Assembly (NCBI GenBank): GCA_963924565.1
Contig: OZ004611.1
Span: forward strand, 30,814,001 to 30,878,000
Direction of reading: 5' to 3'
Source of the DNA: Ascidiella aspersa
Lineage: Eukaryota
Length of the DNA stretch: 64,000 bases
Shown here: positions 3,275-56,700 of the stretch, piece after piece
Layout of the letters: each line of letters begins with the position of its first letter
Numbering within the stretch: the stretch's first letter is position 1
Made by a program: the position numbers and the translations under genes
The notes under the pieces: model-generated
Seen by the model: the letters and a program-made list of their open reading frames with translations, nothing else
Databases searched by the model: none
Told to the model about the DNA's origin: nothing

Positions 3275-4246
3275 TGGGTTTTGAAAAAAAAAAAGCATTC
3301 GCTTGAGTTTTTTGCACTTTTTTTAGTCCAGGTTTGAAGAATGGTTGGTTCAAAGTTGTGGACTTTAGTTTGCGCGAAGTGCAAAATGCACATTTTAAGC
3401 ATTAGGTTAGAAAACTTTCACTTTCAGAGGAGTCATAAGGTGTTTTAAAAACTTTATTAAAAAAATTCCACAACATGTAAAAAGTAAAATGAGATTACGT
3501 GAGTAAATTAATTCGCACAAACAGAAAAAATTGTTTACACAAATATAAACTACATGAAGAAGGGGAATCCTGACAACAGAAATTAGAAGGAAACGAAGAA
3601 AAATACATTTTCTACCGGCGATAATTATTTAACGGCCCGATCAAACCATTCCGACATATTTTCAATCAGCACATTTTTCCTGTGAACCCGGTGCATTGAA
3701 GATTTACGCAAATTAGGGCATTCAAGAACAAAAAAGTCTTGCTTTTAGACCTTGAATTTGTAGATAATGCACAAATGGGACCTTGTAAAACGCAGCCAAA
3801 CATTATAACTATTAAACGTACTTATGTTGTTGGCACCCTTATGTTGTTGAGCTTGCATTTTACAAATAAACAACCAAATACAAAACGGGCCGAAAACCAG
3901 GCCTGGCCGATTTTTCGAAGCCACGGCTTATAAAAAGGTGCCAATCAGTCGGCCGACCTTCGTTCTTTTGCGGTTAAAAGCGCCAGCGCCTTTTTCCAAT
4001 CGTGTGACTCTGCTGTTTACGATATCACCTGCGGCGCGCCAGCCGGGCGCCCAAGCTGCCGTGGAAATAACGCCCGGCTCACGGGCCACCAAGGCTCCAA
4101 AGTCCAACGGCAATATTGCAGAATTGTTGTTTTCCCCTTTTTTGTGTTGCAATTCTCGGCCGCGGCAACTCTTTTACCTTTTTCATTTGAGTTATTGCTG
4201 AGAAATAAAATTCGAACAACATTTAAAATGGCAGTTACCGTTAGAT

Positions 4247-4533
4247 CAAGGGTTCTTAAACATTTTTTACCGCGGACTCCTAACTTTTTTTTGCTTTGCG
4301 TGGACCACGGTAGTCAGAATTTTTTTAAAATGACGTCATAAATTGTCTGCAGTTTTCAGTCCACAAAATTTGAAACTATATATAGTTTAAATAAATTTAG
4401 TAAACGTTTTTAATTTCAACTATTTTTTTTAAATGATTGCTTCTTAAAATAACATTTCAGTTTGGCCTTCATGGTCCCCCAAAATTAGTTCACGGACCCC
4501 AAGGGGTGCATGGGCCCCAGATTAAGAACCCTG
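4247..4533. mobile_element. hAT MITE (CAGGGGTTCTTAAAC family)
   Basis: TIRs; 8-bp TSD CGTTAGAT/CTTTAGAT; relatives at 19564-19892, 22343-22414, 56426-56730, 60447-60780. Confidence 0.8.
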
Positions 4534-8170: not shown

Positions 8171-9220
8171 CGCCACCTGTTTACCCCAGTTTGCCCGCAG
8201 ACTAGCAAACGACGCCAGCTGTCTTGCGGTTGGATTGTGTGGACAAATCGTTACACTTGCTCTTTGAGCTTGTATTTGGTCGACACCGGCTCCAACTTGG
8301 CGGATGGCTGGCATATTTTGAAGTTTATAACTAAGGGCGGACTGGATGGCTATTTATTGGGCCTTTTTTAAATGGGTTAATACTTTGGCCTTTTTTAACC
8401 GGTTTAGTTCTTTGGCCTTTTTTAAATTAATTTTTATGTAAATTGCCTTTTTAACTTGCTTTTCAATAATCGCATTTTGTATGGAATTTTATTTGACTAT
8501 TTTTTAAACCGAAAGCTTCGGAGGACGCGGCTCCAATTCGGCCGATAGCTTGGATTTATGAAGTTTATAACTGGAGGGCGGACTGGGTAGCTTGGCTCAA
8601 ATCTTTCGCCTTTTTAGAACATTTGTTTCAATCTTTTGCCTTTTATATAAAGTTTTTTTTTTGTATTTTGCCTATTTAATTTGCTTTTCACAAATCTGAT
8701 TTTTATTTTAATTAAAGTGATTTTTATTGGTTTGCCCTGTTTATTTTATATTTTTATAAATCAAACTTTTTCAATCTTTTTTTAGCTAAACCTAATAATT
8801 TTTGTTACACACGTTGCCATGTTTTTTTTTACATTTTATTTGATTGTACTCTTGTTTAATTTTATTTTAAACCAATATTTTCTGTTTCATATTTTGTTAT
8901 ATTAAATTAATGTTGTGAGAAGTATTCTTATTTTCTTGATCATTCCGAAGAACTTTTATATCTCATACTATTTGTTTACAACTCACTTTATTATGGCTTT
9001 GAAAAAATATGAATTTCAAGTATTTATTATTATGTTTTGCCTAAAATCATTTAAGCCTATGGTGTTTTATCAGGCAGAATTAATTTGCAAATATAATTGA
9101 AATCCATTAAATTTGAAAAAACTGTTTCTTAAAACCTTTAAATAACATAAGGTAAACATAATTATGGCAAAAATATCAGCACAGCATGGTATCAGATTTT
9201 GTACGTATATGACTCATTAA

Positions 9221-9398
9221 CTTGATAATGAATTTCAAAGCCAAAAAAGGTCGAGTAAATTGACAACATCTTAAAAATGATCATTAACATATACAAGCAG
9301 GTATCGAACATTTTACCAAGATCATGTAAATTTACTCGACTTTTTGCCTTTGAGAGATTCATTGTGAAGCTACATAACAGATCCGTGCATAGTATTTC
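9221..9398. mobile_element. Penelope-like element (family 1), ribozyme core lost
   Basis: Inverted arms; tail ACAGATCCGTGCATAGT; 13-bp TSD with 2 mismatches (9208-9220/9399-9411). Confidence 0.6.
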
Positions 9399-10556
9399 TA
9401 TGAATTATTAAAATACGAAAAAAGCGAAAATAAGTTATTGCGCAAGAACGCGCGCGGTATCAGCGCTTTTATGCAAACTTTTTTCGCGGTCTGGATTTAG
9501 TTTACCCGGACAGGAGACTCGAATCCCTGACATCGACAAACAGTGGCCAGGTTTGACGGCAAACAGGATACCTGAACACCGCAGAATACTTGGCGTCAAT
9601 CCTAGGCGTCGATTTGACGCCGGGGTTACTGGACTCTGCTGACTCGCAACAAGCAATATGATATTGACGCCTTTTTCGATATTCTTCCCGACCTATGTAC
9701 CGTTTAGTTACAAGCGTTTTCCGTTTCATTTCTTCCGTACTGCGATCCATATATTCCCTTAAAGATGTATAAAGTGCGATTAGCCATACAAGATCAAACC
9801 AAATAATGTATGAAAGAGTAAAATCGAACAAAACACCAAAAATAAAGTTTCATGCACAAATGTTTAGCGTCGACTTTTGATTGAAACAGGTCTACGTTAA
9901 ATTCAAATTAGGATGTCGAAATATATTTTTTTCTGATTTTGTGTTTCTTTTCCTAGATTGTTAAATAACTTTGTTTTGCTCACCGCTAAAAATGTATCGG
10001 TAATCGTTCGATACTAACGTGGTATCGATGCCAAACAAAAATTTATAACGGAATTTAGCCTTAATTTACGAACCATTTATTTACAAGCACTTGCCGTCCA
10101 TTTCATTTCTGCCTTAATTACTGCGATCTATATATTTCCTTAATTGATGTATTAAGTGCGATGAGCCATACAGGATCTGACCAAATAATGTAGTAGAAAA
10201 GAGTAGAAACTTAAAAGATTAGAAACGAACAAAACACCAAATATAAAGTTAATTGTCCAAATATTTAGTGTTGAATTTTAGAATGAAACAAATTAACGTT
10301 AAATTTAGGATGGTGGATAACTTTTTTTTACTCACAATGTCCAATTATATCGGATCTGAGCTGATACGTGATGCCAAGCAATAATATCGGCATTTGTCCG
10401 ATACTTGAGCGATCGGTGCCGATCGGATACTAAAATTATATCACAATTATATGTTCAAACGCACCCGTTCCTTCTTTGAAATTTAAATGCATCAAAAATA
10501 ATAGGTTCACAACTTGACCTAACTAAACTTCTCAACGGTGAAGCAAATTAAGACCT

Positions 10557-10866
10557 TAATGGTGAAAATAACGGCCCAAATAGACGTTAAAAGCGACATG
10601 CTTTATTTTCAAACGTTTCGGCAATTTCTAATGCCATCATCAGTGATATCAAACCTTTTTTTACCTGGCAAAATGTTTTCCGTTTCGTAAAAATAAGAGT
10701 TGACCCCATAAGTTACGGTTTTTTTTTAATAGCAAAATTAAGTAAGTCTAATGGTGAAAATACATTTGCCGAAACGTTTGAACAATAAAGCATGTCGCGT
10801 TTAACGTCTATTTGGGCCGTTATTTTCACCATTAAACTTATGAACAGATCCGTATATAGTGTTCCA
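10557..10866. mobile_element. Penelope-like non-autonomous element (family 2): inverted arms, tail, hammerhead motif
   Basis: Arms 10557-10624/10767-10834 inverted; ~32-nt tail; 12-bp TSD AAATTAAGACCT. Confidence 0.7.
10609..10646 (-). ncRNA. Minimal type I hammerhead ribozyme motif
   Basis: UCA-CUGAUGA-U-GGCA(loop)UGCC-GAAAC-GUU-UGA. Confidence 0.65.
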
Positions 10867-13198: not shown

Positions 13199-13555
13199 AA
13201 AAGGGGGGGGGAGGGAGTTTTGTAAAAGGGTAGTTTTGAAAAGCCGGAGAGTTTTGTAAAGGGGGGTGATGGGAGAAGTTGTGTTAAAAAAGGAAGGGGA
13301 AGGGAGAAAATGTGAAGGGAGAAAGTTTTTTCTGAAGGGAGAAAGTTTTCTAAAGGGGGTAGTTTTGTTAAGCGGGATATTTTTTGTAAAGCAGGGTAGT
13401 TTTGTAAAAGGGGCAGTTTTATAAGGGGGATGATATAAAGAGGTAAAGTTTTATAAATCGGGTGATATAAGGGGGAAGATTTATAAAAGGGGGGATATAA
13501 ATAGGTCAGTTTTATAAATGGGGGTAATATAAAAGGGAAAGTTTTGTAAAGGAGA
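13199..13555 (+). repeat. Purine-rich degenerate ~20-bp minisatellite
   Basis: Repeated (A)GTTTT(G/A)TAAA(A)GGGG units; C almost absent on the + strand. Confidence 0.75.
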
Positions 13556-14566
13556 CAACACAAAGGTGTTTGATCTTACAAATACCAATAAAGGGATTAC
13601 TTGAATCCCAAAGTATATCTAAATCTATTCATAGAACAATCAGGGTTCTTAGTTCCAGGGGGCAGCAAAAGACCGTTAGGTAGATCGTCAACTGCTTCCT
13701 TGTTGTGATTCTAGTAGAACTACAATATTATGGCGTTTTCCATCTGGAAATAATAAATACTTGAATCCAAATACTTGAATTTATTCAAATTTCAAATTTG
13801 CTGCCTCAACTTAAACGGTTAAACAACCTACAAAGATTGGCGGCTCAACTAAAACATCGAGTGGTTTTCTTTGAAACATAAATGCCAATGATGCTTTTTT
13901 GGCGAAATATAGAAATATCTTCTAAAATGTTTTACTTTTTGAGCTGTAACACAATGTCTCAAAATATGACGGTACATTACACAGCAGTTGTTAATTATTA
14001 AGTGCTTCAGGTTTGGATGTAGATAGCGCTCATTAAAGCAGTTTAACCTAATAATAATTGAAGTATTGCAAAAGTAGAATAAAACCATTTTATTTTTGGC
14101 CAAAAAGCGGACTAAAATATATTACTAGGTTTGTCGTTACACAGCCGAAGTATATACCAAAGAAACACTTCCGTCAACCTTTTAATTAAATTATATTATG
14201 TTATTTTATTGCTCAGCATTGTCATGCTTTACAATATTATGGCACAGTTGTTTAACCAGATATAAAATCATTTAACTTTAATATTTAACAAAAATGATAT
14301 TTTCTATTAAAAACCCGCGGCTATTATTTCTTAGTATTTAGACTTTGGCAAATTAAACTTAAAAACACAAGTTTAACCTCCACCGGTACCTGAATTTTTA
14401 ACCTCCACCGGTACCCCGCCAATGTGCATTGCATTTCTTGCATCCCAGCCACATTCAAACTCCCAGTCAAGGCGCCAGCGGGAAAACAAGACTGCTGGCG
14501 TCGTCCTGACCACAAATGGCGGCCAAACGCGACCGCCCAGGTCCAATGTGCAGCACGGCTCGCACC

Positions 14567-14772: not shown

Positions 14773-17700
14773 GTTAGTAACTATTACGATTGACCTGTAC
14801 TTGCTAAAATGTGTTCCCCTTAAACCAGTGGTTCACAACCGGGGTGCCCTGGTGTGCCACTTCTAATTTTCAAGAGCATCTGCGACATAATTGAGAATCT
14901 TTAATCTGTTTTTTTGCTCAACTCTTACAACATTTTGTGTAAGATTACAGTGGAATAAATCCAATTATAACACCCTACGTTGTGCAGAGTTTATGTGTGT
15001 TGTTTCAGTTCCTTTTATTGTGACATTCTAGTGAATTACCTAAAAAAATGCTTTAAACCGCTTCCTAACACTGACAGTTGGTACCTTTCGATTTCCGAAG
15101 GTATGAAATCAGTATTTTATGTTCATGGAAACCTACGTAAATTCCTTTAAATGCCCGAATCACTTACTTTCCTATTACGCTACGTGAAGTTGAACGTGTT
15201 ACAGCAAAAGGGAAACGTTATTTCGCTTATGACCCCCTGTTTAGAGAATTTACCTCTTTCGACAACGTTTTTAAAAATTTTAATTTATAGCATCATCAAA
15301 TATATTACGTTTCTTTGATTTATGTTAAACCGTGAGGCAAAGGACTGTGTTTTTTCGGCCAAATATAAACACGGTAATTTACTTGCAAAAAATCCAATTC
15401 AGCGGAGCCTTTTTATAGAAATCCAAATCCATAACTAATAAGGCAGTTTGCCTGTCGTAAAAATGCGGTTAAGGCAAGGCGAGTGAGTTACTGAACGTTT
15501 TATTAACTCCAAAATTGCCCCATTGTTTTATTACACCAATGCCGGAGCGTTTCTAATTAAAACCATAATATATAGCTTACATTTATTGTATTGTGAACGT
15601 TTTATTATTACCGATATGAGCGAATTGAAAAAATCCTTTTCCCAAATAATGTAGTATACTCACATTTGAATTGAACAACCTTATAATATATTAACAAATA
15701 AATATTAACAATAAATATTTTTAAATAAAAGTTGTTCATTATTTTACATTTTGGTTTTGGCATTATCGTATTTGACCACTGTTTATAAAATCTCATCTTT
15801 TTTGTATTTTTATTAGAGATATTTTTTTGTTTGTACCGTTATTTGAAATAGCATTTTCATTTTCGTTTTTTTGTTAGAGATATTTTTGTTCGTACCGATT
15901 TTTTTAAATCGCTTTTCGCTTCGTTTTTCAGCAAACCCAAACGACTTTTTCAACCTTCCGACATGCAACCGTGAGTACTTTTTATTTATTTTATTATTGT
16001 CTAACGAAATAAAATGGTTGGAAGATGCTTAAATTAATTTAGAACAGTTTATATAACAATTATACGCTAAACCGTTTTAGATTGGATTTTATATGACTAA
16101 AAATTTAATACGGCCTAAAATTTAATTTATATATTTTTGGCGACATATTTTTGGCGCATGTATTTAGCACGTATTTTTCCATTTCCGTAACTAAAAAGTT
16201 TCGAAATTTGGTACTGCGCATGAGCACGTCGGACTCGGGATTCGGGTAGTTTTACGCGGTCTTACTCGTGTCCCGAGTCCGACTCCGCCTTCTATTAAAC
16301 TGTTTTGATCTCAAATTATGTTCAAGAATTTCCAGTGATACAATTTTGGATTTTTTTTATATAAAGTTTCATGGCAACCCTGTATAATTATCAGATTAAT
16401 ATTATGATTAAAAGATTAATATTATGATTTTCCTTGATTTGCAGCTGTACAGAGCTTTATCCTTGGTCGCAAGTATACGTACAGCTACGAGGGAATCATG
16501 GAAAGTTATCAAGGCGCTGAACCGAACGGAGCAATGCTTCGGTAAGTCACTCAACCTTTTTAATTACACAGTAATTGGTATTATTAACAGTGGTGGGTTG
16601 GAAGTTTATCCAGATAATCCCTTTGGTTGGCTTTTGAGTAACGCACGATTTCTCGATTCTTTAAGAACATCACTTTTACTATCAATTTATGAATTTTTTC
16701 AGTCAGGCTCTCGTTAAGGTTTTTCAATTAAATAATATTTCGCTCTAAAAAATTCCGAAACAATCAAGTCATTGAATGGAAACACTAGTTACACATTTTT
16801 TGAATTTCTTGAAAAAAACATAGACACCTTATGAGACATGCTTTATTTTCACAGCTGTTCGATTGAGATGAGCATTCCGTACAAATGCGCGGGAACCTTG
16901 CGCGCCACCCAGTGCCAGGTCCTGCAGGCGACGCCCCTGGCCAACGGAACCCTGGCCTACACGACCCCCTCCCCCCTTAATAACCAGGCTGTCAAAATGA
17001 TGAGCCGGTACCCAATCTACTTCCACTTTGGTGATGGAAAGGTTTGGGGGATTTTTTTTTAACTTGTTCAAAAATGAAATTTTTAGCTTCTGTATGAATG
17101 TAGCAATAAAGTTGTGAGCTTTAAGTTTAATTAATAAAGTTAGTATTGTTTACAGAATTTACTCAACGTCATATTAATTGATTTGGTGATCCAGACTCAT
17201 ATTACATTTTACAGACATTTTAGACAGGGTGGACACACATTTTTTTAATTTTATTAAATAATTTTTTTGATACCCACTATGGATTTTCTTTTTGTCATAC
17301 AAACTATGAAGTGTCTTCTTTATGGATTTTTGTTGTTTAAAATGTTGCCATTCCATTATTTGTGACATAGGAATAAGAAATTGAGCCAGAAAGTTTTACG
17401 GGCAAAATAGGGTACGTTTTTGCAGATTTCTCAATGTCATATTGACTTTTTATACAGTAAAAAGTTATTACCCAGACTTGTCTGAGTTCCTGTTTATCGC
17501 AAAAAAATATTCAAAGTATTTGGTCATCAAAAAATTTACCTAGCAATGACGTTTGCTAACTTCCTCAGAACTATGAACTTACACAAAAGTAGGTAGCATT
17601 TTGAACCTTACGAATATCTCTTTATTCACCTTCAACATCACAACGAAGTTGAAAATGACAAAATATTTACTCGAAACGTCCAAAGTGCTATACCTATTTC

Positions 17701-20700
17701 TGTTTGGGCTTTGATATTCTTACTATACATTGACTTACAGTTTCCTTACACAAAATAGTTAAGTTCCACATATTGCCTGTTATTAACTTTTACTTTTTCA
17801 TTAAATCTCAGATACAGAGGATTTTTGCATTCCGTTCTGAGCCGTCAGATGTTCTTAACATGAAGAGAGCAATCCTCTCAGCACTTCAGGTGGACTTTGT
17901 GGCCTTCAGGAACACAGCCGTCAACCAAAAAATACAGGTACTTATTTGTGCTTCATTCTGGTGGTGTAGCACTGAATATGTGATATTGGAAATCACCTTG
18001 ACCCTTGCAAGATAATGGTCGACCTTAATTGCTGATCAGTAATTACACAATACTCTTACAAAGCTAGCAATTCAAGTCAGCCAGTATTAAAAGATTTTAA
18101 AAGGTATATATCAATATTTCGCCAGCAAAGGCAGCGTCAGTATATATTACTCAACTAGAACGATTTTATTAATGATTCTACAGACTCTATTTAAATAAGA
18201 TATGCTGACGATGCCTTTGGTGGCGATATATGATCTTGTTATTGTGTCTGACCTGAATTGTTGGCTTAGCTAAGTATTCAGTTGTTGATTCTGGTGATTA
18301 AGTCAATCGAAAAGTCACTATGAAAGACTCGAAACCGCCATGATGTCATTAGTATTCTTATATAAACAAATTCGATTCACTAAAACGTTCAAACACAAAC
18401 TTTGGATTTAAGACAAAAACAGTCCTTGTATATTAAACAAAACATTAAAATAACGTCATAGCAAATAATAACTGACACATTTTACATTTCAATTCCTAAG
18501 TACCCCGAAAGCAACATCTTTGGCGCCGGGAACGTGACTGCCACCGTGCGGTCGCTCTCGGTCGGCGCCCCCCGCCGCGTGGTGGTGCAACGGAGCACGC
18601 TCGACATCGTTCATCCTTACAGTCCGAGTGAGTTTGGGCACATGCACACCTCCTTCCAGGAAAACGACATCACAAACTTCGCCAACGACTTGGTACGTCA
18701 AGTTGCGCGGTTTTTATATAACTTACAGAGTTTTGAAAAGGTCCTATTGCAGCTTTAGATTTTAAATGCGCCATCAAAACCCAAGTTTACATAAAACTTT
18801 TTTAAAGGAATATGCAAATTGACCGGTTATGAAAATGTTGCTTTATTTTGTGCAATTAGTTAAAAAAAAAGTTTGATCACAATTTTTTGGTCAATATTTA
18901 ATTTTAATATTTATGTTCACTAAGTAGCCTATAGCAATTTTTTGCTGTTTTGTATTAACTGTCGTGTTTTAAATCCTTTGCGAACGAAGTTAAATATGTC
19001 AAGTTAAGCGTTTTTCGTATAAATGTCAGAGTTGTGTAAACGTTTTGCAGCTTTAACGTTAAACGCGCCACCGAAATACAAGTTTGCATCGACTTTTTTA
19101 ACCGACATGCAAGTTTTAACAAGTTTTTTATTTTGATCAAATAGTGGCAGAGTCACAAAACAATAAGTCTAACAGTTTTACAATACGTTTTATCTCATAA
19201 TATTGCTTAAATCAATTATATAATACCACGGTTTTTGCGACTCTGAAATACTATTTGATAAATATGTTAAAACACTCGTTTAATCAAACGTTTTTAACAT
19301 TTTGAAAACAGATTTGGCGTTGGAGTGGTTGTACACTATACTCACTTTGCTGTAGATTAGACATAACTTGAATAGTACAGTTTTTAACTGTCGTGTCTTA
19401 AATCCTTTGCGAACGTTTTTACCGATTATTTTTAATTTACAGTTTACAGTACACCTAATTTTTTGTAAGGTATACTTCACGCCCTTCTAAACCAGTTTTT
19501 TTCCCAGGTATTCTGTAGAGTTCATTTCACGCTGCTTTTCCTCCTTTTTTAGATTATTTAGTACAGTACGTCTAACTTGATGCTGGGGTCCATAGATTCC
19601 TTGGGGGTTCGTGAAGTAGTTTTAGGAGTCAATGAAAACCCAATATAAATATTAGTGTAATTTAAGAAGTATACTATTTATCAAAGAACAATAAATAAAA
19701 CGGTTTTGCACTAAATGCATTAAGACTTCATTTCACTTTCATATTTTTGGACCGAAATCAGCTGATTTATTAAGTCCATTCGTATTGTGACGTAAATTTA
19801 TGACGTCAATTTTTGATTTTTTGCCTACCGTGGTCCACGCGAGGCCAAAAAGTTTTTTAGGGGTCCGCGGTAAAAAAAGTTTGAGAACCCTTCTCTACAG
19901 TAAACTTAACTACTTTAAGGTAAACCTCAAGCCTTTTCAAACTCTTTTTGTCCCAGGTCATGAGCGCAGCGAGCAACATCGAACGAAACTCTGCGCAGGA
20001 GTGCGATTACACGCTTGAACGCGGACGCGTCATCGAGCAGGTCACGTGTTCAGAGCGCAGAGCGCCAACCACAGTCCAAGGAACTTTCCTTCAGGTGAGA
20101 GATAACTAAAGAGTATTTAAGTCCAAGTCTTTTTAAATAAATAAGAAGTCAAGTCCCAGTCAAGTCATCATTAGGCAAGTCAACTTCAAGTCACGTCCTT
20201 GTCGTAAAAATAAAACGTTAAACTATTGGAATTTTTTTAACTCGGACGATTATGAGCAATAACTGAACTAAAAAATAAAAAATAACACAACATATAGAAT
20301 GCAAATTTGTTTTGTGTGCAAAAATTTTGATAAATATCTCAATTTTATTGAAAAAAAGTCTTCCAGAAAACACTTCATTTCAACCCAAGACATTTATCAT
20401 TTGCCCAAAAACTCAGGTCAAGTCACGTTATTTGAAAACAGTGACTTAAGTGCACTTAAGTTAAGTCATTCACTCAAGTCATTACAACTCTGGTATAAGA
20501 CAAACTAAATAACAGTGAGCACACAAAGCGCATTGTGATGTCACATAAGAAAATGTTTTGTTTCAAAGTTTTTCTCGCATGCGAAAATACTTGCACTGTT
20601 TAGATTTTTCGCCAATTAGTGATAGAGTCACATTTTTAATCACGATTTTTTGCTCAAAAGTATGTTTTTAATGTTTTACGTTCACAAAGTATATCGATTT

Positions 20701-23700
20701 TGTTTCCTTTCTGTCTACAAAGTCTTTTTTCTTCAACGATGAGGTCAATATTTAATGCTAAACGCTATGAGTTATTTGCTTTTATAATAGTAAAGTCGAA
20801 AATTACTGCAATATATATAATGATCGAAAAATTCAATGACTGTAACATCACTACAGATAGAGGTCACACTCACAAATTAATTTTTAACAAATAAATGCAG
20901 AAATAATACTGCAGTTAATAAAAATTGCAGTCATGATAAACACAAGGGTCAATTGACCCTCTTGGTAATTACCGTAGGAAAAATTTTCAGTAGTTCTAGG
21001 GTTAAAATATAAAAAAAAACGTTACAGTTCCTGTCATGTTAATGTTTGTACAAAGCCGAAACCTATTTTTTTTTCACAGCCGATCATGGAACTGCTCGTG
21101 AGCGCCACTGGTGTCAGCGCCGTTGAAACAATTGTAAGGTTGAACATGAAGCGAATTAGCGAGGTTCCTATGACCAAAGAAGACCGCATTACACCAGGTA
21201 AGTTCAAAGTATAGGTTTCGAAAGAGTCGATAAGAATGGGAGACTAGTTTTTATAGTTTTATCTTGTGGAGATTGCGTTAAAGTATATCTACAGCTATTT
21301 TTATGAAATTTATGTGTTCGCAACTTTTTATATCTCACTTTTGTCCCCCCCCCTCCTCTAATTTTACAATTTTTACTGTTAGTAAGCTTCGAATGAGTCA
21401 TTTTGCTGAAAATTTCTAAATAACAAGTGTCGGAGACTAGTTTTATCTTGTAGAGATTGCGTTGAAGTATATCTACACTGATTTTTATGAACATTTGGTA
21501 ATAGGAACGTTTTTTTTATTTTATTTTTATTTCCCCCCCCCCCCACATTTTTCGTAATTTACGATATATGCTCTAAGCACAGACAAGATATTTAATTTTA
21601 TAGAAAGGCAAAGTTGTCCTTGTTGCTATAGTAACATAAAGAGTAGACTGATTTTTTACAATTAAGAAAAACTTGATGATGCCATTTACTTGCCGTAATG
21701 CATATTTTACAATATAAGTTTAAGACCCTGCTAACTAAATTTTGTTCGAAGCGGTGCATTTCGCAAGCTTTTAAAAACGTATGTTAAAAAAAATTGTTAT
21801 CGTCAAAAGTGTGTGTTCTGTTGGACCGCAGGATTCTCTTAGTGAAAACATACTAAGCTTAAAGAATAGACTAACTGAACAACAACTGGTTTCAACAAAG
21901 AAATGCCTCAAACAATACCTTGACCTGGACAACTGGTGACTTTAACTGGGACTTGACTTGTTACCTATTTAAAAGACTTGGTCTTTGTTTTTTTTACAAT
22001 ACTCTGCCTTTACACCCTCTTTACTGAGTTGTTATTGACAGACTTAAGCACGAAAATAGATAAGCTTTGTACATTTTAATCTACATATCACCCAGGTCAT
22101 TCCATTTACCATTTAACGCAATGCTGGCGAATACTATTTGCTTTAAACTTGTCAAGTTCCTCATAGGCGTGGGCTAACTCAGGCTGACCAAAGAATTGTG
22201 GAACCTTTAAAATTATTTAATCTCACCTATATTTTCTTGTGTATAAAGTTTTCGTTATTTTTAGTTGAGTTATTGCTCATAATCGGAAGGGTGTACCAGT
22301 TTAAATAGTTTAACATTTTATTTTTATATCAATGACTTAACTCAGGGGTTCTTAAACTTTTTTTACCGCGGACCCCTAAACATTTTTTTTGTCTCGCGTG
22401 GACCACGGTAGGCAACTGATGTCTTGTACTGGGGATGACTTGACTTAGACTTAAGTCATTTGTAAAATGAACTTGGGTAACTGATGTCTTGTATTAGGAC
22501 TTGACTTGTTATTTTTGCAAAAGACTTAACTTGGACTCAAGTTTTTTTTAAATGACTTTACTGGGACTTAAGTTATTTGAAAAAGACGTGAATGATAGTG
22601 AGCACACAAAGTAAAATGACTTGTTTACAACACTGCTGTCACCGCTTTTGACTGTGAGTCCTACTTGTATTTCACCAGGGGAACGAACTCTGATCCAGAC
22701 TTCTTACAATCTCGCCAACGTTATGTTCGAGCAGCAGTGGCGAGAAATCACCAACGGCGAACTCGTCAACTTTGACCCCGTTGCGACCTTCGACTCAATG
22801 GTGCGTGACCCACGTGACCCCTACATGGCGGGAAAGTTTTCCAAGCTGGCGCATTTAATCTCCACCCTTCCCGCCAACCGCATCCAGTCCATTTGGAGTC
22901 AGGTCTCCGGGACCTTCACCGGAAAGGACCTGGAAACTGCCACGTGAGTGTCATTTTGTTGAAACAGAACGATTTTTCATGTCATTGAAAATGACGTAGT
23001 TTGTTGGATGTTTGATGTCATTGAAAATGACGTAATGAGTTCAATTTTTGATGTCATTAAAATTACGTATTGATTTCACTTTTTGATGTTATTGAAAATT
23101 ACGTAGTGAGGTGGATTTGTGATGACGCTTTAGAAAATGGTAGATTGGTTGACGAACATTTGTTGGCTTGGTGAAGTGCACAACCTCCTAAAATCATTTC
23201 AGTTTCTAGTGAATATTGTTTATCAGTCCTTGTTAAGTCTCAGTTTAAAATGTGTAATAGTTTCACTAGCCAACAAACCGATTAAACTATTAACAAACAC
23301 TGAAAAAAAAGCACTCAAAACAAGGTGTTTTTTATTTTGTCTTGTTTTAAAACATCGTTCCTGTTTTTATTGAATTCGAGAAAGTTTTGAAAGGATTGCG
23401 TTGCTGATGCTCCTAGATAAAATTGTAAATTGCCTGTGAAATTTTAACAAACTTATTTTCAGTTGTTAACCTATAGTTATAGAATATATCAAAGACCATG
23501 CAGAAGTAGGTTGCATTTGGAACGTTTCGAATGACTCTTTATTCATTTTCAACACCAAAAAGAGTCTAAAGAATTATTCTGAAAGCTTCAAGATGCTACT
23601 TACTTCTGAATGGGCATTGATATTCTTACTGTGTCTAACTACAACCTCCAGCCATTATCTTAAAAGTTATTTGAAACGTGGAAATTCTACCTACTTCTGT

Positions 23701-29700: not shown

Positions 29701-32700
29701 ATGAAATAAATTTAAATAGATCTTCATTACAACCAATCCATTTACCTTAATATTTAGTGTTTGAAACTGCCTTGCTTGATCTAGTGATAAACATATATGT
29801 AAACGGCTTGATTCTAACAACATTTATTTAAGTTATTAGTTAACAAAGAACAATATGTTTTAGGCTTTAGAGCATGTAAACATTTTCTAACTTTGAGTTA
29901 ATTCTCTCCATAGATGTCAAACAAGAATGTTTCCCTGCTCGATCTCTCAATCGACATGACCAAGATGATTTCGATCATTCAGCCTTTGTTTGGCAGCAAC
30001 GGGATCTTCCCCGAACCGAAACTCAGCCAGCTGCTGAGCCTTCCTATTGGTCAGTTGCTGGCGGGAGCGACCAATCAGCTGCCTCCCCTGAACGCACAAG
30101 AGTTGGCACAACTTTCACGCGTACAAAACGAGGTAACTAATTTGTCCACGTTTTTTAAATCTGTTTTCTTTTAGATAATGAATTGCAAAGCCAAAAAGGT
30201 CGAGTAGATCGACATCGTTTTGATTAAGACGTTTCGATTGGAACTGTATCTTCTTCTGTTAATGTTCGTATCGAAACGTCGTAATCAAGATGATGTCAAT
30301 CTACTCGACCTTTTTCGCTTTGAAATTCATTACCAAGCTACATTATAGATTCGTGTATGGTGTGTGTTGTTTCGTTCTAGCTGTGCAAGTTATGTATATA
30401 ATTTGTAACAACCAAGGATGTCTAGTTTACACGACACATTTAAAAGACTGATCCGTTTATTTACACGTTTTAAACTTTTAAACTAATTTTTATTGCAAAT
30501 TGTTCGGTTTCTGATAAAAACAACGAAATGTTTTGAGTTATAATACTATACCATTTCGTAGGGCAGTACTTCGGCTAATTTTTGTTAGTTAGAAAATTGA
30601 TATGCACTAATTCTTAAAACGTAATTTCATTTTTGTAGAAAAGATGACTTTAGGAATAAGTCCTGTTTACCTTAAAGCCAAAAACATGTCCATTTATTTA
30701 CAAACCTGTCAAGTGTATACACTTTTCTTTCTAAAGCTTTACTACTTTTTACCCAATATATTTGTTGCTGATTAAAACCAATGGGTTAATGATATTTGCT
30801 TTGTCTTGACTACAGTATATAGTAGCTTTACGAGAACACCTATAGTTAATGAGCAGCAATATGCATTAATTCCAAAACCAAAAAATGCTTAAAATAATAA
30901 AAGTGTTAAAATCCAAAAGGTCCAGTGAATCGACATCATTCAAATAGAAAATTCGAGAATTGCGTTTCACCTTTTGTAAGCGAGGTTTCGATATATTTCA
31001 GTCACATCAACTGATGGTGATACAAGTGCGTATCGAATAGTCTTTATCAAGATAATGTCGATTTAATCTTCATTTTTGGCTTTGACACTTATTATTAAGA
31101 TAATTAAAAAGCCGCTTAACATTTCTTTTATACAACAACGAGGAAACAACATAACGCAAGTTTTTTATTATTATAACATAGGGTTACACAACAGAGATTG
31201 TGCTCAAACGATCAATATAAATCGAAAACCAACTTACCTTTTGACAGGCTTCGATGGCTTACACCATGGCAAAGACCCAGTCCAACATCCCAGTGTTCAT
31301 CAAAGTACTGGGAACTCAAATCGACCTCAACTCAATCCTCCAGATTCCATTTATCCGCGAACTCAACCTTATGAGGATGTGGCAGGTGAGACTGGGACCG
31401 TTGTAATATCGTATAGTTACGGGTTTTTTAAACTGGTGTCCGTGGGCCACTTTTGGAATGTGGCCTAGTTTTAGGGTCCCGAAAGGCGATAATGTGAAAT
31501 CGGAGCGATTATATGCTAAGTGTTAATATACACCCTAACGTGCAAATTGTTATCTGTTAACTTATTCCCGTGACAAGGTGTAGTAAACTATTTTTACCTT
31601 TATAAAGCGGTTTTTGATTAAGAAACAAATGTACCGTTGGAGTTGATTTGTCTTTATATTTCGGTAAAAGAGATAAGCAATGGTTGGCCTACCTTTTTAA
31701 TTAAGCTATAAAGATTATACTTTCCCAACACCCTAAACGTTGGTCAGAAAGCAGCATCCGAGTGGCTAGATTACAGTTGTTAACAAATCGTTAAACCTTC
31801 ATACTAAGCTAATTCATGAAGAGTATAGTTCCGACAGCGTATATTTCACGCAGCTTTCCGAGAACTTAGCCACTGGAATCAACTTATCAACTCTGGTAGC
31901 GGACGAGACTCTCCACGCCCATGTGGCCGTCCCCACCTCGATCGGCTTACCCCACGTCACCCACCTTAACCTGGCCTATTACCTCAACGCCCAAGCCAGG
32001 TTAACCGCCCAGATCAGGAATATGATCCTCTATGGACGCGGAAACGTTCAAATTGCCTCCAAACCTATGTGAGTTGAACTGACAATTCGTGGTAATCTTC
32101 TCGTTAAAATTTAAATTTAAAAATTTTCCTTGCTGTTTGGCTCAGAATAATTTGTTTTAAAGAAAGATGAAATATGCGGTCAAAATACCAATTAGTTGTT
32201 TTAATCGAAAATGGATAGAAAATGTCCACATTAACTGATGATTTTTGATGAACTGACAATTCGCGAATCTTGTAATATTTGCTGCAAACACTTGTCTGCT
32301 TTAGTTTGCTCGAATGTTGGAATTCCATAATTTTTAATAACTCTCAAACGTTTGTTTTCTTAAAGTTAGTTGATACCGTTGGCGAATTGTATTATTGCTA
32401 AATAACTTTCGTACAACTTTGATTCACTAAGTTAAAGTAAGAGATTTATAGATTTGGACTAAGACTTCAATTTACCTTTAAAACTAACAAATAGGAAAAG
32501 TTTTAGCTACAAAATAGGCTGAAATTACGACTTCAGTATTTCTTGAAAATATACATTAAACACCAAACACATGAAAAACTTAGAAAACGCCTTAACGGGA
32601 AATATCCTTAACACTAACTAAAAGTGCAAACCGATTAATCATTGTTTTTTCCAGTTTGAGAACCACCTTTCTTGTGAGCCAAAAGATCCAGCTACCCGGC

Positions 32701-35700: not shown

Positions 35701-38700
35701 CCTCTTTTCAAACTGTACTACAGAGAAACGAGTAGCTTGTAAGGATATGTAAGGTTGCGTATACGGACGCACGAAACACTCATTTTTTAAAACTTTTGCA
35801 ACAATCGTTTTGCACTATTACTTTATATTCTACTTATTTTACATTAACCTAAGTAAACGGAGCATACGCGTGCGTAAGGAAACGTAACACTGCGTATACG
35901 GAGACGTAAACATTTTTGTTTTCCAAACTTTCGCAACAATAGCTTGGGACAATTACTTGTAGTTCGCGGATTTACATTAACGTCGGTAAACACAGAGCGC
36001 ACGGATACGTAATGTTGCGTATACGGATGCGAAAACTATATATTTATGGCATGGACGGACACATAAATAAACAAGTTTTTGAACTAGTTCTCGCTTATAG
36101 GAATGTAAAATTCACGGATATATAAGCAACATTTCAAGCATTATATTTTAAGCATGAGGAACGAACCATTAACAAAACAATGTTAAACCTCAAGCATTTA
36201 TAGCAATATTTCATGCAATAGAAGACTCAAACCAGTAGTTTCAGAGATTGAATAAAACCTTTACCTTAGGCGTTATAATTTATATTTAATGTTAAAACTT
36301 CAACACGCAGCATTCCGAAGAAGCTGATACTTACACAGTGGACGGAAAGATGGAACTGCCAGTTGTCGGCGTATATTCGCTTTCTGGTATGATCAAGAAC
36401 GAAGTGATCAACTCGCCATCCTACACCCTAAGAATGAAGGTAAATAAAGTTTTTAAGTTATTGTCATTAATATCCCCAAAATCTCAAAACCTGGGGGTCG
36501 TTAATAAACACATATGTGCGCGTGTCTTTTATTTAATTTGGGTATTCTTCTTCCTCGAAATCTTGCTTAATTTATTTGGAAATCTTCACTTTACTGGAAA
36601 ATAACAAACTCTGTGAGATGTAAAACCTAATTAAAACCGTGGCCGTCACAACATGACTCCTAGGTGCACAGTTGTTTTAAACAAATTTCACATTTTTCAA
36701 AATTAAATTTTCCACTTTCTGCTGTGGAGGTTATTCATCTGTGGATAAAAATATTGGTGTATTAATTAATTAATTTACCGTAGTTGGCTAACTCTCAGAT
36801 CGGATATCTGAAAGGATTAGTTTAATTGTCTGTTTAATATCAAACTTTTTTTACATCATTTAAACCTAAAGTCACTTTAAAGTTTGTCATAAGTTATTAA
36901 ACAAGACTCCGTAGTAACATAAAACTTGAGAATATATGTTAAACAAATGTGTTTAGTTGGTGTTTTCTTGTATTGCAAAAACAGATTTTATAATGATTCA
37001 TCAATAGATATACATCAATAGAGCGTTCAAATATTATGATACACTAAAATTTGTAAAATACATTAATAACAAATATTAAGTATACCAAATGCCATAATCT
37101 GGTGTAAATTATAGTATTATTACCATACTTCAATTCACTTCAAACCTCCATTTTTCGCCTTTTCAGATCCAGAAAGGTCTCATTAGCAACTTGCGCGCCA
37201 CGCCCCTTTGCCACGTCACGGTAAAGACCACGCCCATCTCTGAAGGACCACTCAACGGTCAAAGAACCACAGCCTCCATTGAATCCATCCAAATACCAGC
37301 ACTGCCCTACAGAGAGATCAGCATACAACTGACCACTATGAATGACACAGCAGGTCACTCGAAGGCCATTGTCCACTGCCAAGCGCTGCGGAAGGATACC
37401 AATCCGACCGAGTTCTTCAACTGGCGGATGAATATCAGGCGTACGGTGCCAAACTCTCCAACTCCCGTTGCTATCAACACGACCTTCACTTGCCCCACGT
37501 GGCAAGCACAATTTGACCTTGCCGCGCCCAACATGACCTTCATCGATAACGTGGTGCGTCTGGTCGTGCCCGAAAAGAAGATCCCTGCGTCACTGATGAC
37601 GTCAACAGACCAAGACGCGATTCGTATTACAGAAACGAGCGCCATCTTTAATCCCACTTGCATCACCGCACGCGCCCTTCTCGCAAGGTCACCTGAAGAT
37701 GAGACCAAGGTCAAGGTCGAGTTCACAACAGCTCCAAGCAAAGGTCGATTCCTGCGTTGGATTAAACCGGACAAGACAAGCTACTACGCGTTTGCGACTC
37801 TTAGCCCTAATGTGTGTCTTTACTGTCACGACATACAAGTCCGCCTTCCTTACCTTAACTTCTACAGCAGGGTTAAAGGACTTGAAAGTTCCTTCTGGAA
37901 CAACAACGTCGACGCTGGGTTTGAGTTACATAGAGACCTTATGCCTTACCTTGGAGCCAGCAGCAACCTGATAAACCTTGCAGACCGCTTTGTCTTCACA
38001 GACGGATGGCTCAGGGTTGGCATCTTGGAGCAGCTGTCAGGCGACCGAATGGAGTTCGGATACCGTCTGGGCGCGCGCAAATTCAACGCTAAGATAACAG
38101 CCAGCTTCAAGGACCCTGTAGCTCACGTCAAGACGGTTTTAACTTGCACAAGATGTGTCCCACTTTTTGACGTTACTTTTATCAACACGTTAGAGATCAC
38201 GCACCAGCGTCTGGCACAAAGCAGACTCACAACCTTAGCGGCTTCAGACGGCTTCTCACAGCACATGTCAATACAGCATAGTCACGTCGGATTAGCCAAC
38301 ATCAGCACCTTTATAAACACTGAAGCTGCTTGGAAGAGAACCGAGCTTAGAAGACTTGTGATCGGCAGCAACTTTAAGTACACAGCTCTTAGACCTTCAC
38401 TGCTCACAGTACTTCTATCGAGTAGCGAGTTTGAATACCCGATCAACATCAACGTTACGGTTTCCGACACACCTACTCACCCCGGGGCAACCGAGTATAA
38501 CCTTGGACTCAGACTCGGACCCTCCATGATTTGGGATGGAACAGTTTCAAAGGAGGTAGTTACTTCGGAGCGATTCCCATTGGTTTGTGTTGCAGGAACT
38601 CCTTGCGTTCGCACAGCAATCACACTCACCAAGGTATGTAATATCTTGTGTTATTTTAGTAGGCTACATTCAAACAAAAAGTAAACAGGTTTTTAATTTT

Positions 38701-41700
38701 GGGTACACGGTAGCACAGTTCCTGTCAAACTTTATAAAATCGGTCTGCACTATTAATCGTTTTTTTTTTACTGGTAAAAAAAGTTAATAAGTATTTGCGT
38801 TTTACATATAACAATAACTAAATCGAAATTTTCGGACACAAGATATGTTAATTCTTAATATGTTGGTTATTTAGAATCTTTGACACTTTAAATGAGTCAT
38901 TGAAAGTCATTATTTCGGCATATTAAAGTTTTGAAAATTGTAAAAAACAAACTTCAAAAAATGGCAAAATCGAACATTAATGGCGTATAACAGCAAATAA
39001 GCATTACTGAAAACATAAAATAGATCTAATAAAATATTGGCAATTTATTATCTCTGTTATCTTTACTAAAAAATTGAAAGCGGAAAAAACAGTAATAAGA
39101 AAAAAAAGGAAATAAAATTTCTGCAATTATGTATACTAAAACAACCTTTATTTTTTCAAAGAACACCAACTGTGCAAACTTCAGCGTTTTCTACGCCGGT
39201 GGCTCCCCACAGCTCCACGCCTATACCACCACGCACTGCGCTCAGATGCAGTTGGAACATGTGTCCTCTGGATCCAGGAGGTACAACACCAGCATCCGGG
39301 TGGTGGGAGACGGTGATCCTTCATTCCTCATCAACAACCTCTTCATCCTGATGGAAAACATCCCAGAAAAACATCACATCCATGCCAACTGGGAGATCGC
39401 GAGTCCAATCATGTCCGTCGTCCCCACAACCGGGAAAATCGGCTTACTCATGAAGCCAAAAGTCTTCCGGATCGAAGCGGATCTTGGTAGGATGAAGATC
39501 GATATCCTCCGTCGCATCGTGGAGGAGCGTGATGAGAGCATTATCTCGCTGACTCTCAACGATCTTGCGATAGAGTGTGAGCTCCACCAGAGAACATCAG
39601 ATTCCAACATCCTCGATTTCGCCATCCCACGCTGCTCCCTGCGCTTTGTTCCTCTTGCGGAAGAGAGAATATACAACTCCAGCCTCACAGCTCGTGTTTC
39701 TTCCTTGTGGGATTTTAGGATTTCCTCGGAAGCGCGGGAGGACAGAAAACCGCTCTTCAACGCAGCTGTCGTGTGTAGCTCGGTGGACTGTAGGATCACA
39801 ATCCTAGGAGGAACCCCAGTGAACCGCATCAATCCGATCAACATCACCTCCATCTTCACTCCCGCTTCCGTTGACTTTGCCGCCAAGATCACCGAATCCT
39901 TCAACTCAAGACTTCTCCTAAAGAGGAACAACATGATGTTGCTCTTTGTTACCCCGAAAGTCGTAATCAACGCCAGCGCGATCATGCTCCCAGAACTCCG
40001 AGTCAACGCCATCTTCAATATACCCGGAGTTATGACTAACTCACTCGAGTACGCCAGCGGCCAGCTGAGGAGTTTGAACTCTGTCGGCCATCAGCTCCGC
40101 ATCCCCGGACTCCAGGATCCTTACTCGTGGACGTGCAACTTCTTCAACACCCAGGAAGCTCCTCTTAACCTTAACATCGCTTGGAACGCAGGAGTATCGA
40201 CAACTTACGGATTCGTTTACTACTACGGAACAAATGATCCATCGATTCCAGCAGTACACGTTGCATCTGCTCCACCCACCAGCAAAATCCTCCGAGTCCG
40301 CTTCTCACAGGTAGCCTGCTCTTCCAAAGTCCTCCTTGACAACGCGTACGTCTGGACGCCGCTCATGGACAGACTTGTCTCCGCGGAGTTGAACGCAAAC
40401 TCAAACGCATGGATCTTCAATAGCCACAACCGCTTAGGAGAAATGACCATCGCTGCCAAGTACGACGCTGCACAGCAAACTATTCCAGTGGTCGATATAA
40501 CTGCTACTATATCCGAAAGCGGGCAGATCTCCATGAACTACGCCCTTGGTCCTTTGGAAGCAGAAGATGCTATTTTCCTAAACGGAGCAACTAAGATCAT
40601 CTACGGAAACCCAACAGTTCAAACAAGTCCGTCAGCGACCCTAGCCACCACCTTCAACATCGTTCAGTCAGCTTTCAAGGCACAGTTTGACATCGACTTG
40701 CGTACAGCGGGCTACGGAGAAAACAACTTAGTGTTCTTCTGTAGGAACAATATCTACAACGCGGCGCTCACAGCTGAAATGCAACTGCGCGCTAAGGAGA
40801 CTTCCATGAGATACTTGGTCGCGTATGAGAACAACGCCCTTCATCTGCTCTTTAGGTATGAATTTCTATGTGTAACCAAAGCACCCTGTTGTTATTCGAT
40901 ATAAGGATTGTAAAGAAACATGTAAATAGGGCGTAAAGCGAATTAACGAGCTTGTTTTTCATTTGACATTTAATCTAACTACCGAATCACTTTGATCCGT
41001 ATAAAATAGAAAAACACTTAAATCGATGCAAACTATTGCACTTAAATCGATACAAACTATTGCCTAGGTTCGTATCCTGGCCAGCTTATCCCTTTGGTGC
41101 ATGCAAAACATAAAGTGGTACAAACTACATGACCATTGGTCGTTTTGTAGCCTAAACATTCGTTTCCATTGATTGGTTAGGTTAAACCGCGTTTTCTAAT
41201 CCCTTCACAGCTAAATAGATTCATTAATGGATTTTAGAAACGCAGTTGTTAGTCTGAAATCGTAAATTATTTTATTTTGTTTAAAATAAATATTTTTCTT
41301 AAAATTATATTTACATAAATACTCGGCGTTTCATATTGGATTTATAAGTGCATTTTTTCAAATTATTGTGCAGCTACCCGAACACGCGGGACGCTGACCT
41401 TCGCCTTGACCTTGACGTAACCAGCGGCGGACTGCTGACCGTTCGTGACGCACGCTTTAAAATCGGTCGCCATGTTTGGTCTCTGACCGGGATGACGGCC
41501 CAAGTGCTGGTTGACACTGAAGGTCGCGCCAACGGTTTAGACGTACGCGACGTGACCTTGAGGCGGATCTGCACGTGCTCGCCCAAGGTCGACTGCGAAT
41601 GTGCCCTCACAATCGTCGGTCACGCTCTGATGCAGATCGGCGGTGAATGGAACGTCGACTTTCACGATACAAAGCGTGAGCTGATCATCATCACCTTCGT

Positions 41701-53700: not shown

Positions 53701-56700
53701 AGTCAATAAATAAAAAATATGGAGTAAATGGTCAATAAATTTAAAATTCCAGAATGCCAGAGTTGGAGCAGCACATGAAAGTTCACGTCTTGCAGAAAGC
53801 AAACGACGTTATTTTGCGCATCATCAGCAACAACCAAATGATGAAAATTACCGCCAACTGGAACATTAGGCAAGAAAGTTTGTAAAATTCTAAACTAGTG
53901 GTGCCAAACTTTTAGTAAACTTATTATAGTATTTTTACTAAAGTGGTCCTGAACCTTCCACGAGTCTTGTCCCTTTCAATGAACTTCAACAACTTGCTCC
54001 CCCTAACATTATACAGAACGACACAAAGGCGGTCTATGACGTCATAGTGAAAATCACGAATTTCAGTGAAAAATACAAATATTTTAAATTTAATCATATT
54101 ACTCATAGCAAATGAATGATGCAGACAGATATGCGGGTTAAAAGCGGTGGTCTAGCCCGTCTGAAGCTGCTTTATGACCAACGATTACGGCTTACGTATC
54201 TAGGTGTACTCATAGCAAATTAATAAATAATTATGATTTGATGCACCTTTTAACTGTTGTTATTTTCTTTTCAGGACGATGCGATTCGTTAGCGCCACCA
54301 TATTGATGCCGATGTCGTCGGAATGCATCAACGTCACCACTTCGACAAACGGAAATGACATCATCTTCAACTTTAATGACGTTAATGGATCCCCGTACAC
54401 TTGCGTGCTCACCACAACCGGCGCCATGACCTTCACGTGCCACGTGACCGTAAGATAATAACTTCACATTTGGCCGCCATATTTTGTCAAACGTTGAATT
54501 AAGACATTAAGGTTTAAAATCTGCAATCGAAATTAAACATTAAACCATCAATGTAACATACACATTACCTGTTTCTGTTCTTTTGTTAAATTATAGAAGT
54601 TTGTCACAGCGAAAGTTGTACAGCCTTGCCTTAGGTATAAAACATGACTCAACTTTTGTTGTTATCGGCTATAGATTTGTTAGAATGGAAAACATGCAAC
54701 CGGTTTTGAATTAATGATTTTTGGCTACAATCATGATTACAACATTATTGAGTTTTACTCAAATAAAATTTAAAGGTTTTTAAAATCAAAATAGGCCAGA
54801 TAGTATGTCACCAAAATTATCCAGTTTATATAGCTTTTTTTATTTTCGCTCTTAAAACTTAATTTACCAGATTAAACATTGCAAAGGCATATACTTACTA
54901 TTACCTGTACATCTCAAATAAAATTTAGAAAAGATTAACTAAAACAAAGTAGATAAAACAAGGTTCCATCTTACTCCAGTCTCCTGCCCTACGCTTTTCC
55001 AATGTTCTATGGTTTCCTTTCAGAAAAACGGCAACAGGGTGCGAGTGTGCACTGCTCAGCTGCCCCAAGAGAAGCGTACCTGGGCCAACTTGGTCAGGGC
55101 GGGAATATTAGTTACCCCGATGGTATACCGAGCCGCCCTGCGTCCAGAAGAATTCAAGCGTGACCTAACGCGGGTGAGTGCTCCTCTAGTGGTGAATGTA
55201 AGCTATTTTTTACAAATTTTTGACTAGGAGGGAAGTACTAATCTCATGTAACCACTATGCGATTGCTGTAATTGAGAATGGAATAAAGAATATATTGAGA
55301 TTTTTTTTGGATTAATTGAAAATGATAAAAACAAAACTATTTAGTAGAAGTGCACCTCCAGTGAAAATTGCAATTTGCTGTTCTGACAACTAGTCGTGTA
55401 ACTGCTCTCCGAGACTGTAAATTAGATTGAAATTAAACTTATAAAATAAGAATTGTTAGTGGCTATATCGAGAAGCATTACAGTTTTAGCCGACTGGTGT
55501 GACTAGTACTAATTGTTAACGTAGATATGTAGATAACATACAGTTAAAATATTGTCGGATCCAATTGTAAACTTCGTTTTATTGGAATTTCACACTAAAC
55601 GACATTTTCACATAACTCAGTATAGTTTTTGTTAAATAAATATTTGTGTATCCTTCATTTAACGTTAGTCATGTTGATAAAATTCAAAGCAAAATTTCAT
55701 ATTCAGCCCGCCATTATGACTACTGAGTCAAGCCCTTTAAAAGAGCACTTTTGTTAGTAGTTAAAAACACCTCTAATACGTGCTGGTACCCTTGTGTTTT
55801 TTGTTTCAAAACAAACCTTAAAATAATTGCTTTTTATAAACAGAGTAAATGCGAGTCCAGAACAATTCAAACGTAACCTCACGCGGGTGAGTGCGCCTCT
55901 AGTGGTAATGATGTGTTCGTTTTTTACGAATATTTGACTGAGTGAAATGTCGTGTAACACTCGCCGATTATGTAATTTAAAATCAAATAGAGGATTTTCA
56001 ATTAATAATGTTACAAATCAAAACGATTTATAGTTGGAATGTATCACGCGGGTGAGCTGATTATAAGGTGTTTTTTCGCGCAACTCTGTTAACGAGATTA
56101 AATAACTCGCCAATCAATCAACGCTCTTGCTAAGCGAACTTTATCGTGTATCGAAGGATTTCTCGCGGCCTATACTCCATTATCAAACAATTCTTTATTT
56201 CTTATATATTTATATATATATGACATATATATTGTGTTTCCATAAAAATGCGTGATTTTAAAATAGGAAAGGGCGTTTATTTCATGTTTCTGATGAGAAA
56301 AATGTTTAAAAGACGAACAATGTTAAAGGTTGGTACTCGGCTATAATTCACCATTCCATAACTATACTTTGGCCGTCAAAATGGTAATAACCAAAGCAAG
56401 TTGTATTTCTTGACTGGGTATTGGTCAGGGGTTCTTCAACTGGGGTCCATGAACCAGTTTTAGGGGGTCCATGAAGGCATACTTGAAATATTGATGTATA
56501 ATTAAGTAGTAATAGACTTATCAAAGAAAACAGTTTAATTAAAAACAAAGCGGTTTTGCACTGAATGCATCAAGACTTCATTTCACTTTTACATGTTTGG
56601 ACCGAAATCAGCAGATTTCTGAATTCTATTTGTATTGTGACGTAAATTTGTGACGTGATTTTTTTGCCTACCGTGGTCCATGCAAGGCCAAAAAAAATTA

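Follow-up and report, generated by a model that had tools for sequence, protein, structure and literature searches.

The window analysed here, a stretch of 64,000 nucleotides from a 308.6 Mb eukaryotic assembly, contains several short inserts with hammerhead-like motifs, which raises the questions of what kind of element they belong to and whether the ribozyme has any part in its propagation or any effect on the host. With high confidence, the inserts, referred to as copies A to D, derive from that end (pseudo-LTR) of a Penelope-like retroelement (PLE) which bears the hammerhead. They are truncated at the 5' side and mostly arranged head-to-head, were likely written by target-primed reverse transcription and are decaying in a manner that looks neutral; their PLE identity was missing from the preliminary description of the window. 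The family is an ordinary mobile element, representing further PLE pseudo-LTR stubs with a minimal hammerhead, a class already known, to which one testable mechanistic lead is added.

Positions in the unit are counted from C3 of the hammerhead (position 0), which places the cleavage site at +32. Copy A is a palindrome of unequal arms. Its arm 1 (30173..30265, minus strand) spans unit positions -7 to about +86, forms the untailed end and includes a damaged minimal type I hammerhead (30223..30263, minus strand; U4>A, helix II damaged), while arm 2 (30264..30363, plus strand) spans +15 to +114, is 5'-truncated within helix II and carries a tail of ~30 nt. The arms are joined at a 2-nt microhomology, and no target-site duplication (TSD) of this insert at 30172 was found. 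The arm described previously is present, but it is one of two inverted arms. Copy C (30956..31114, plus strand) is an older diverged unit, -56 to about +104, with 76% identity to the reference and a weak inverted remnant of 26 nt (30915-30940); its hammerhead (31006..31047, plus strand) has A9>G and A14>U, and the base following A15.1 is altered as well. Copy B (45252..45379, minus strand) is a single tailed arm, -7 to +117, with no inverted partner detected, whose hammerhead (45336..45377, minus strand) carries G5>A and G8>U with helices I and II intact. Copy D (9218..9393) consists of head-to-head arms, +38..+91 (minus) and +9..+112 (plus), separated by an 18-nt filler. The region 9221-9398 had been listed as a fourth copy with a 13-bp TSD; it is indeed an insert of this family, but with arms starting at +38 and +9 it has no complete hammerhead, and the duplication, present at 9208..9220 and 9399..9411 (both plus strand), is imperfect (11/13 identical). 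The three hammerhead-like strings quoted earlier, 30223-30263(-), 45336-45377(-) and 31006-31047(+), read exactly as given, with differing lesions, and the suggestion that the window copies decayed after insertion is upheld.

Copies A, B and C are apparently intronic in a long plus-strand gene, with splice-like signals at 30134, 31247 and 45408 and putative exons at 29914-30133, 31248 onward, 37098-38684, 39099-40904 and 45409 onward. A Pfam search with five pieces of the host ORF, the large exons included, gave nothing at cut-off. Relative to this putative gene, copies A and B carry their full-span hammerhead in antisense orientation and copy C in sense orientation.

The first-look search of the genome returned 1940 candidates for the element, 40 of which were scored. 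The exact 32-nt core has 455 matches genome-wide, compared to none for the reversed control, which speaks against a chance motif; because so many exact intact cores exist, the intact form needs no reconstruction from differently damaged copies. At each of the 12 core columns the canonical base predominates, both in a consensus of the 28 best-matching copies (2 of 30 loci were dropped as duplicates) and in a systematic sample of 95 evenly spaced 10-kb stretches (950 kb), where the weakest column is G5 (14/20). The genome-wide majority, CUGAAGA and GAAAC-GUC, contains both CUGANGA and GAAA, whose lack from the consensus had been named beforehand as the refuting outcome. The 950 kb sample includes 21 inserts as identified by blastn or 22 by a profile, corresponding by extrapolation to about 7,000 genome-wide; 10 of its 30 arms are cut within the hammerhead, and all core bases are kept in four of the other 20, so that damaged copies form the majority. 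Comparison of the window with two contig sets, one of which may be the source sample, revealed 3731 and 4902 matching contigs, nearly all on the element, and resolved no empty insertion site. Two pairs of loci, L220/L221 (G000:C1:31881935 and 32033616) and L240/L241, have the same flanks and represent segmental duplications, which were counted once in the set of 5' ends described below.

Judged by its sequence, the motif is a minimal type I hammerhead (min-HHR) rather than a canonical one: helices I and II are 5 bp long, an unpaired base precedes helix II, and helix III is replaced by the self-complementary ACGU. Of the earlier designation "canonical minimal hammerhead", the type I family consensus is retained, while the word "canonical" is not, since helix III is missing and the 11 matches at E<=5 from the Rfam scan of the window include no family of hammerheads. 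When the motifs of 29 natural intact arms are folded alone, the probability of helix II is at least 0.9 in 28 and that of helix I is at most 0.13 in 27. In folds of the whole inserts the helices are largely lost because the antisense arm pairs with them, the probability of helix I being 0.00 in all 29 and that of helix II at most 0.12 in 20. RNAcofold of two motifs did not return a hammerhead dimer; this program does not model the core, which makes the result uninformative on dimer activity. For min-HHRs, no cleavage of monomers and low cleavage of dimers have been reported (Cervera and De la Pena 2014, PMC4209133), and the hammerhead of the PAc element was described as cleaving only with protein and as dispensable for insertion (Frangieh et al. 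2024, PMC11167929). By analogy, cleavage here would probably need a dimer or the element protein, and the earlier inference of an active ribozyme is not supported. In read-through transcripts of palindromic inserts the ribozyme is predicted by the folding model to be locked in a long hairpin, and therefore little effect on host genes is expected.

In longer copies the shared sequence continues upstream of the unit, and the hammerhead unit occupies the place of a 3' pseudo-LTR, downstream of an ORF encoding reverse transcriptase (RT) and endonuclease. At locus L061 an ORF of 202 aa, ending ~100 nt before the hammerhead, matches a profile of homologue C-termini at E 5.9e-54, and RT domains were recognised at loci L091 and L109 (PF00078 at E 2.5e-9 and 1.2e-7). 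The RT query retrieves 183 homologues of at least 759 aa (about 760-900 aa), with a best identity of 38%; those among the matches listed all contain PF28514 and PF26215. The GIY-YIG domain (PF01541) was identified in two of four scanned homologues, in one of them above the Pfam curated cut-off, and the element's own C-terminal pieces gave no GIY-YIG match in Pfam. The profile of homologue C-termini, together with the Pfam matches of the homologues, indicates an EN+ PLE with a putative C-terminal GIY-YIG endonuclease. The other attributes of EN+ PLEs, namely, a PLE-type RT, inverted pseudo-LTRs, a one-sided tail of 30-40 bp and a target-site duplication, are present as well; no extra Cys motif ahead of the endonuclease is visible in the PLE translation, the lack of an additional Zn-finger in the RT-EN linker being, together with RT phylogeny, what sets the Penelope/Poseidon clade apart from Neptune and Nematis. 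The sequence after the hammerhead weakly resembles a PLE N-terminus (the top three among 36 frames compared, with E 0.006 at best), and in Adineta Pen2a and Anolis PAc the pseudo-LTR is described as covering the first ORF codons (PMC3846280, PMC11167929).

The RT region is rare, with only 11 candidates genome-wide, all of which are broken or truncated as far as examined. In none of the 11 does a 5' pseudo-LTR continue into an intact ORF, as it would in a full-length copy; homologue matches begin at residue 170 at best, and the N-terminal 170 residues are reached by no RT candidate. Among 117 distinct tail ends, none runs on into shared sequence except one duplicated pair. All five further RT-bearing loci combine a short inverted end arm with the 3' unit or else with some of the element body. 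RT-bearing copies thus share the inverted short end, and therefore the stubs represent the small end of one size range.

The architecture of the inserts is asymmetric. Among 123 distinct insertion clusters, part of which were chosen with a palindromic query, 68 are head-to-head and none is tail-to-tail. One end lies at +108 to +119 (at +117 in 47 cases) and the other at +74 to +104 in 65 of the 68 head-to-head inserts, and none has two long ends. In agreement with this, in a set of 91 arms chosen by the core alone, the 59 arms with an inverted partner comprise 55 long-short, four short-short and no long-long combinations; a partner was undetected for the other 32. TSDs of at least 9 bp flank 42 of the 68 head-to-head inserts, compared to 8 of 400 shuffled flank pairs, and are absent from 26; they are mostly 10-16 bp long, with a mode at 12-13 bp. 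At 62 two-arm junctions, filler is present in 41, microhomology of 1-4 nt in 18, and three are blunt; overlaps of at least 2 nt occur in 12 of the 21 filler-free junctions versus 20% of simulated blunt joins. Inverted pseudo-LTRs, one-sided tails of 30-40 bp and 5' truncation are standard PLE traits (PMC8557442), and two internal RT starts bounding the tail have been shown for PAc (PMC11167929). The bases following the tail are non-random (in the 117 distinct tail ends, A in 93, A in 89, a G-rich third base in 38 and T in 78), which may reflect target preference of the endonuclease or short pairing of the target with the continuing ORF RNA.

Being palindromic, about 190-200 bp long and very abundant (1940 first-look candidates, 21-22 inserts per 950 kb), the inserts resemble MITEs, non-autonomous DNA transposons, whose long terminal inverted repeats would carry a hammerhead-like string by chance. 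However, the arms are unequal, with the tail on one side only in 65 of 68 cases, their centres vary freely, and sizes are continuous from 128 bp to kb-long RT-bearing copies. The TSDs are variable and long, and the symmetric fixed ends and short fixed TSD of a MITE were not found in these inserts. This origin, already contradicted by the continuity of the unit with the PLE ORF, is extremely improbable.

The 5' ends of the PLE pseudo-LTR copies were analysed in 136 deduplicated arms not selected for length, 104 of which start within -59..0. Of these, 21 start at -7, 2 nt before helix I, and 42 within -9..-6, a few calls near -8 and -11 being indel artefacts of the end-caller; in a held-out set, 8 of 22 arms start in -9..-6. 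Only one of 59 arms starting in +1..+70 begins near the cleavage site (+30..+34). The accumulation of ends at -7 and their near absence at the cleavage site therefore suggest an uncleaved, probably capped template.

The same data bear on non-LTR retrozymes, non-coding tandem units that are self-cleaved to monomers, circularised and retrotransposed. Such an origin would account for the presence of a type I hammerhead in a unit that is short, non-coding and far more numerous than RT-bearing copies (1940 vs 11 candidates), and retrozymes have been proposed as derivatives of PLE pseudo-LTRs (bioRxiv 10.64898/2026.07.22.740005). However, head-to-tail tandem units each with a hammerhead were not observed at the examined loci, where only four distinct same-strand neighbours within 1 kb were found among 207 arms. 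No permuted units were found, and the single end near the cleavage site among 59 likewise argues against this origin; a retrozyme is very unlikely.

Several features suggest that the -7 ends of the PLE copies correspond to an RNA 5' end. The base at -7 is the A of an initiator-like YYANWYY context. The accumulation is present in three sequence subvariants. A G precedes the start in 9 of the 21 arms starting at -7 compared to 7 of 66 at other starts (p 0.002), but this did not recur in the held-out set (none of three). In full-length L1 insertions, copying of the cap leaves an extra G (PMC11702581), and PLE promoters have been located in the pseudo-LTR (PMC2377424), although the start site of the D. 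virilis element lies ~120 nt before helix I (PMC2377424, PMC4209133), unlike the 2 nt found here. The -7 ends fairly probably represent the capped transcription start of the element RNA.

Alternatively, the pile-up could be due to pausing of the RT or to a processing cut, or could arise secondarily from splicing at an acceptor-like motif located just upstream. A pyrimidine tract ending in AG is indeed present at -11/-10, an intron in D. virilis has been reported to end at helix I (PMC4209133), and some of the G's ahead of -7 may derive from the partner arm or filler. However, the peak is at -7 and not at the exon start, -9, and no shared exon or leader ahead of the -7 ends is visible among the listed arms. 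The occurrence of the peak in three subvariants, the excess of G ahead of it and a comparable fixed start in a second hammerhead family (23 of 27 arms) also argue for the capped start, so that these alternatives together are possible and rather doubtful.

In the mechanism favoured here, the element protein, for which a dimer is predicted in the only PLE examined in vitro, would nick both strands 10-16 bp apart, and two internal RNA sites, near +88 and +117, would each serve to prime one cDNA. The template would be uncleaved RNA, and many cDNAs would extend to its fixed 5' end 2 nt ahead of helix I, probably the capped transcription start, after which the two cDNAs may be joined head-to-head through microhomology or filler-type end joining. 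More tentatively, with somewhat less than even confidence, the thousands of stubs can be viewed as a fossil record of the PLE reaction, every one of them made by a protein dimer that starts a single cDNA at either internal site, the tail site never being used twice, while the RNA stays uncleaved and many cDNAs run off its capped 5' end. In that case the inserts would be copies, by reverse transcription, of the beginning of the PLE mRNA or of transcripts from solo pseudo-LTRs, brought to high copy number in a SINE-like manner, with the hammerhead never cutting.

The finding of the ribozyme is itself of little weight, such motifs occurring by the thousand in animal genomes. If the proposed reaction is true, it bears on the origin of the inverted pseudo-LTRs and the one-sided tail and on whether the hammerhead cuts the template, and its predictions, for 5'-end mapping as well as for the in vitro system already established, are precise to the base. 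A published fixed 5' end ahead of a PLE hammerhead was not found in the literature search, supplements and most subscription papers lying outside it; nor did the search find work joining Penelope, ascidian and hammerhead.

As an extension of the earlier inference, the decay of the core might be attributed to harm done to host transcripts by an active ribozyme, with selective inactivation following insertion. All three full-span copies of the window have lost the intact core, which just 4 of 20 arms of the random sample keep; genome-wide, G5 and G8 of the core have 54 and 23 single changes, more than a loop G (13), and in the random sample together with the window the core is changed more than the downstream region (36/251 vs 107/1156, p 0.02). 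However, the two rates are equal when these arms are pooled with others not picked by core (53/785 vs 225/3438, p 0.81), and in similarity-picked arms the core rate is the lower one (9/430 vs 94/2335). The excess at G5 tracks sequence context: 35 changes fall on the helix II G, which shares the TGA context, a non-core site in the G5 context mutates equally often (20/172 vs 11/94), and the order of single-change counts follows trinucleotide context. Moreover, G>A equals C>T (140/2881 vs 136/2801), and the hammerhead fold is predicted to be masked in the whole insert. Selective inactivation is accordingly regarded as unlikely; no sign of selection against the catalytic core was found, and its decay looks neutral, with room for a small selective effect. 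Deamination of cDNA as the cause of G>A was rejected because the equality with C>T leaves no strand asymmetry. A single inactive G5>A subfamily is also unlikely, 20 of 54 such places having mixed subvariants and starts.

Other repeats are present in the window. A second palindromic family with a minimal hammerhead shows U3-A8 core covariation at 17649-17679(+), 23522-23552(-) and 59109-59139(+), with a degenerate copy at 52891-52923(-); this covariation is known from Schistosoma (PMC4209133). The second family has 1173 pattern matches in the assembly (none in the control), and among the 100 matches listed U3 is found in 100 and A8 in 98. Its conservation starts sharply at -3, 3 nt before the core, in the 23 of 27 arms mentioned above, with a G before the start in 7 of 22, and its downstream frame resembles a PLE N-terminus. 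Further near-perfect palindromic or inverted-repeat elements are located at 46326-46442, 48128-48296, 10556-10835 and 3038-3288; their miRNA matches in Rfam are weak and below gathering scores. A dispersed repeat family with CAGGGG-type ends (4241-4321, 19693-19890, 22337-22419, 56426-56719 and 60447-60786) presumably resembles hAT-type non-autonomous DNA transposons, and a tandem array at 13405-13582 comprises five copies of ~31-bp units.

In its anatomy the family corresponds to PLEs as published (PMC3846280, PMC8557442, PMC11167929, PMC4209133). Non-LTR retrozymes (bioRxiv 10.64898/2026.07.22.740005) are likewise non-coding, PLE-related and equipped with a type I hammerhead, but are defined by head-to-tail tandem repeats with a hammerhead per unit, unlike the present inserts. 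A closer match is provided by the min-HHRs of metazoan PLE pseudo-LTRs (PMC4209133), which share the type I core, the 5-bp helix I, the unpaired base before helix II, G10.1-C11.1 and the palindromic 15.2-16.2 without loop 3. They are mostly scattered single motifs tied to truncated PLEs, with opposite-strand pairs 100-700 bp apart, and the U3-A8 variant occurs among them too. Helix II is 7-8 bp long in the Schistosoma families and 5 bp here, and that survey apparently does not name the host lineage of the present element.

PAc, a Poseidon element of Anolis (PMC11167929), has the hammerhead at the junction of the pseudo-LTR and the ORF and two internal RT start sites bounding the tail; both strands are cut and extended, the template is unprocessed RNA, and there are no ends at the cleavage site. 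It differs in being active and in occurring in tandem repeats, whereas the present family yielded no intact ORF and consists mainly of short inverted inserts; its published description apparently mentions neither a fixed start ahead of helix I nor a strict pairing of one long and one short end. Adineta vaga Pen2/Pen2a and D. virilis Penelope (PMC3846280, PMC2377424, PMC8557442) have inverted head-to-head pseudo-LTRs that extend over the first ORF codons, TSDs of 8-10 bp, a one-sided tail of 30-40 bp and an internal promoter with an Inr-like motif. The head-to-head junctions of Adineta have been explained by self-priming on an antisense template (PMC3846280), while for the junctions described here two primed cDNAs are favoured over self-priming. 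The Adineta and D. virilis elements are low-copy and mostly long, in contrast to the present family of ~7,000 (extrapolated) mostly ORF-less stubs with TSDs centred on 12-13 bp.
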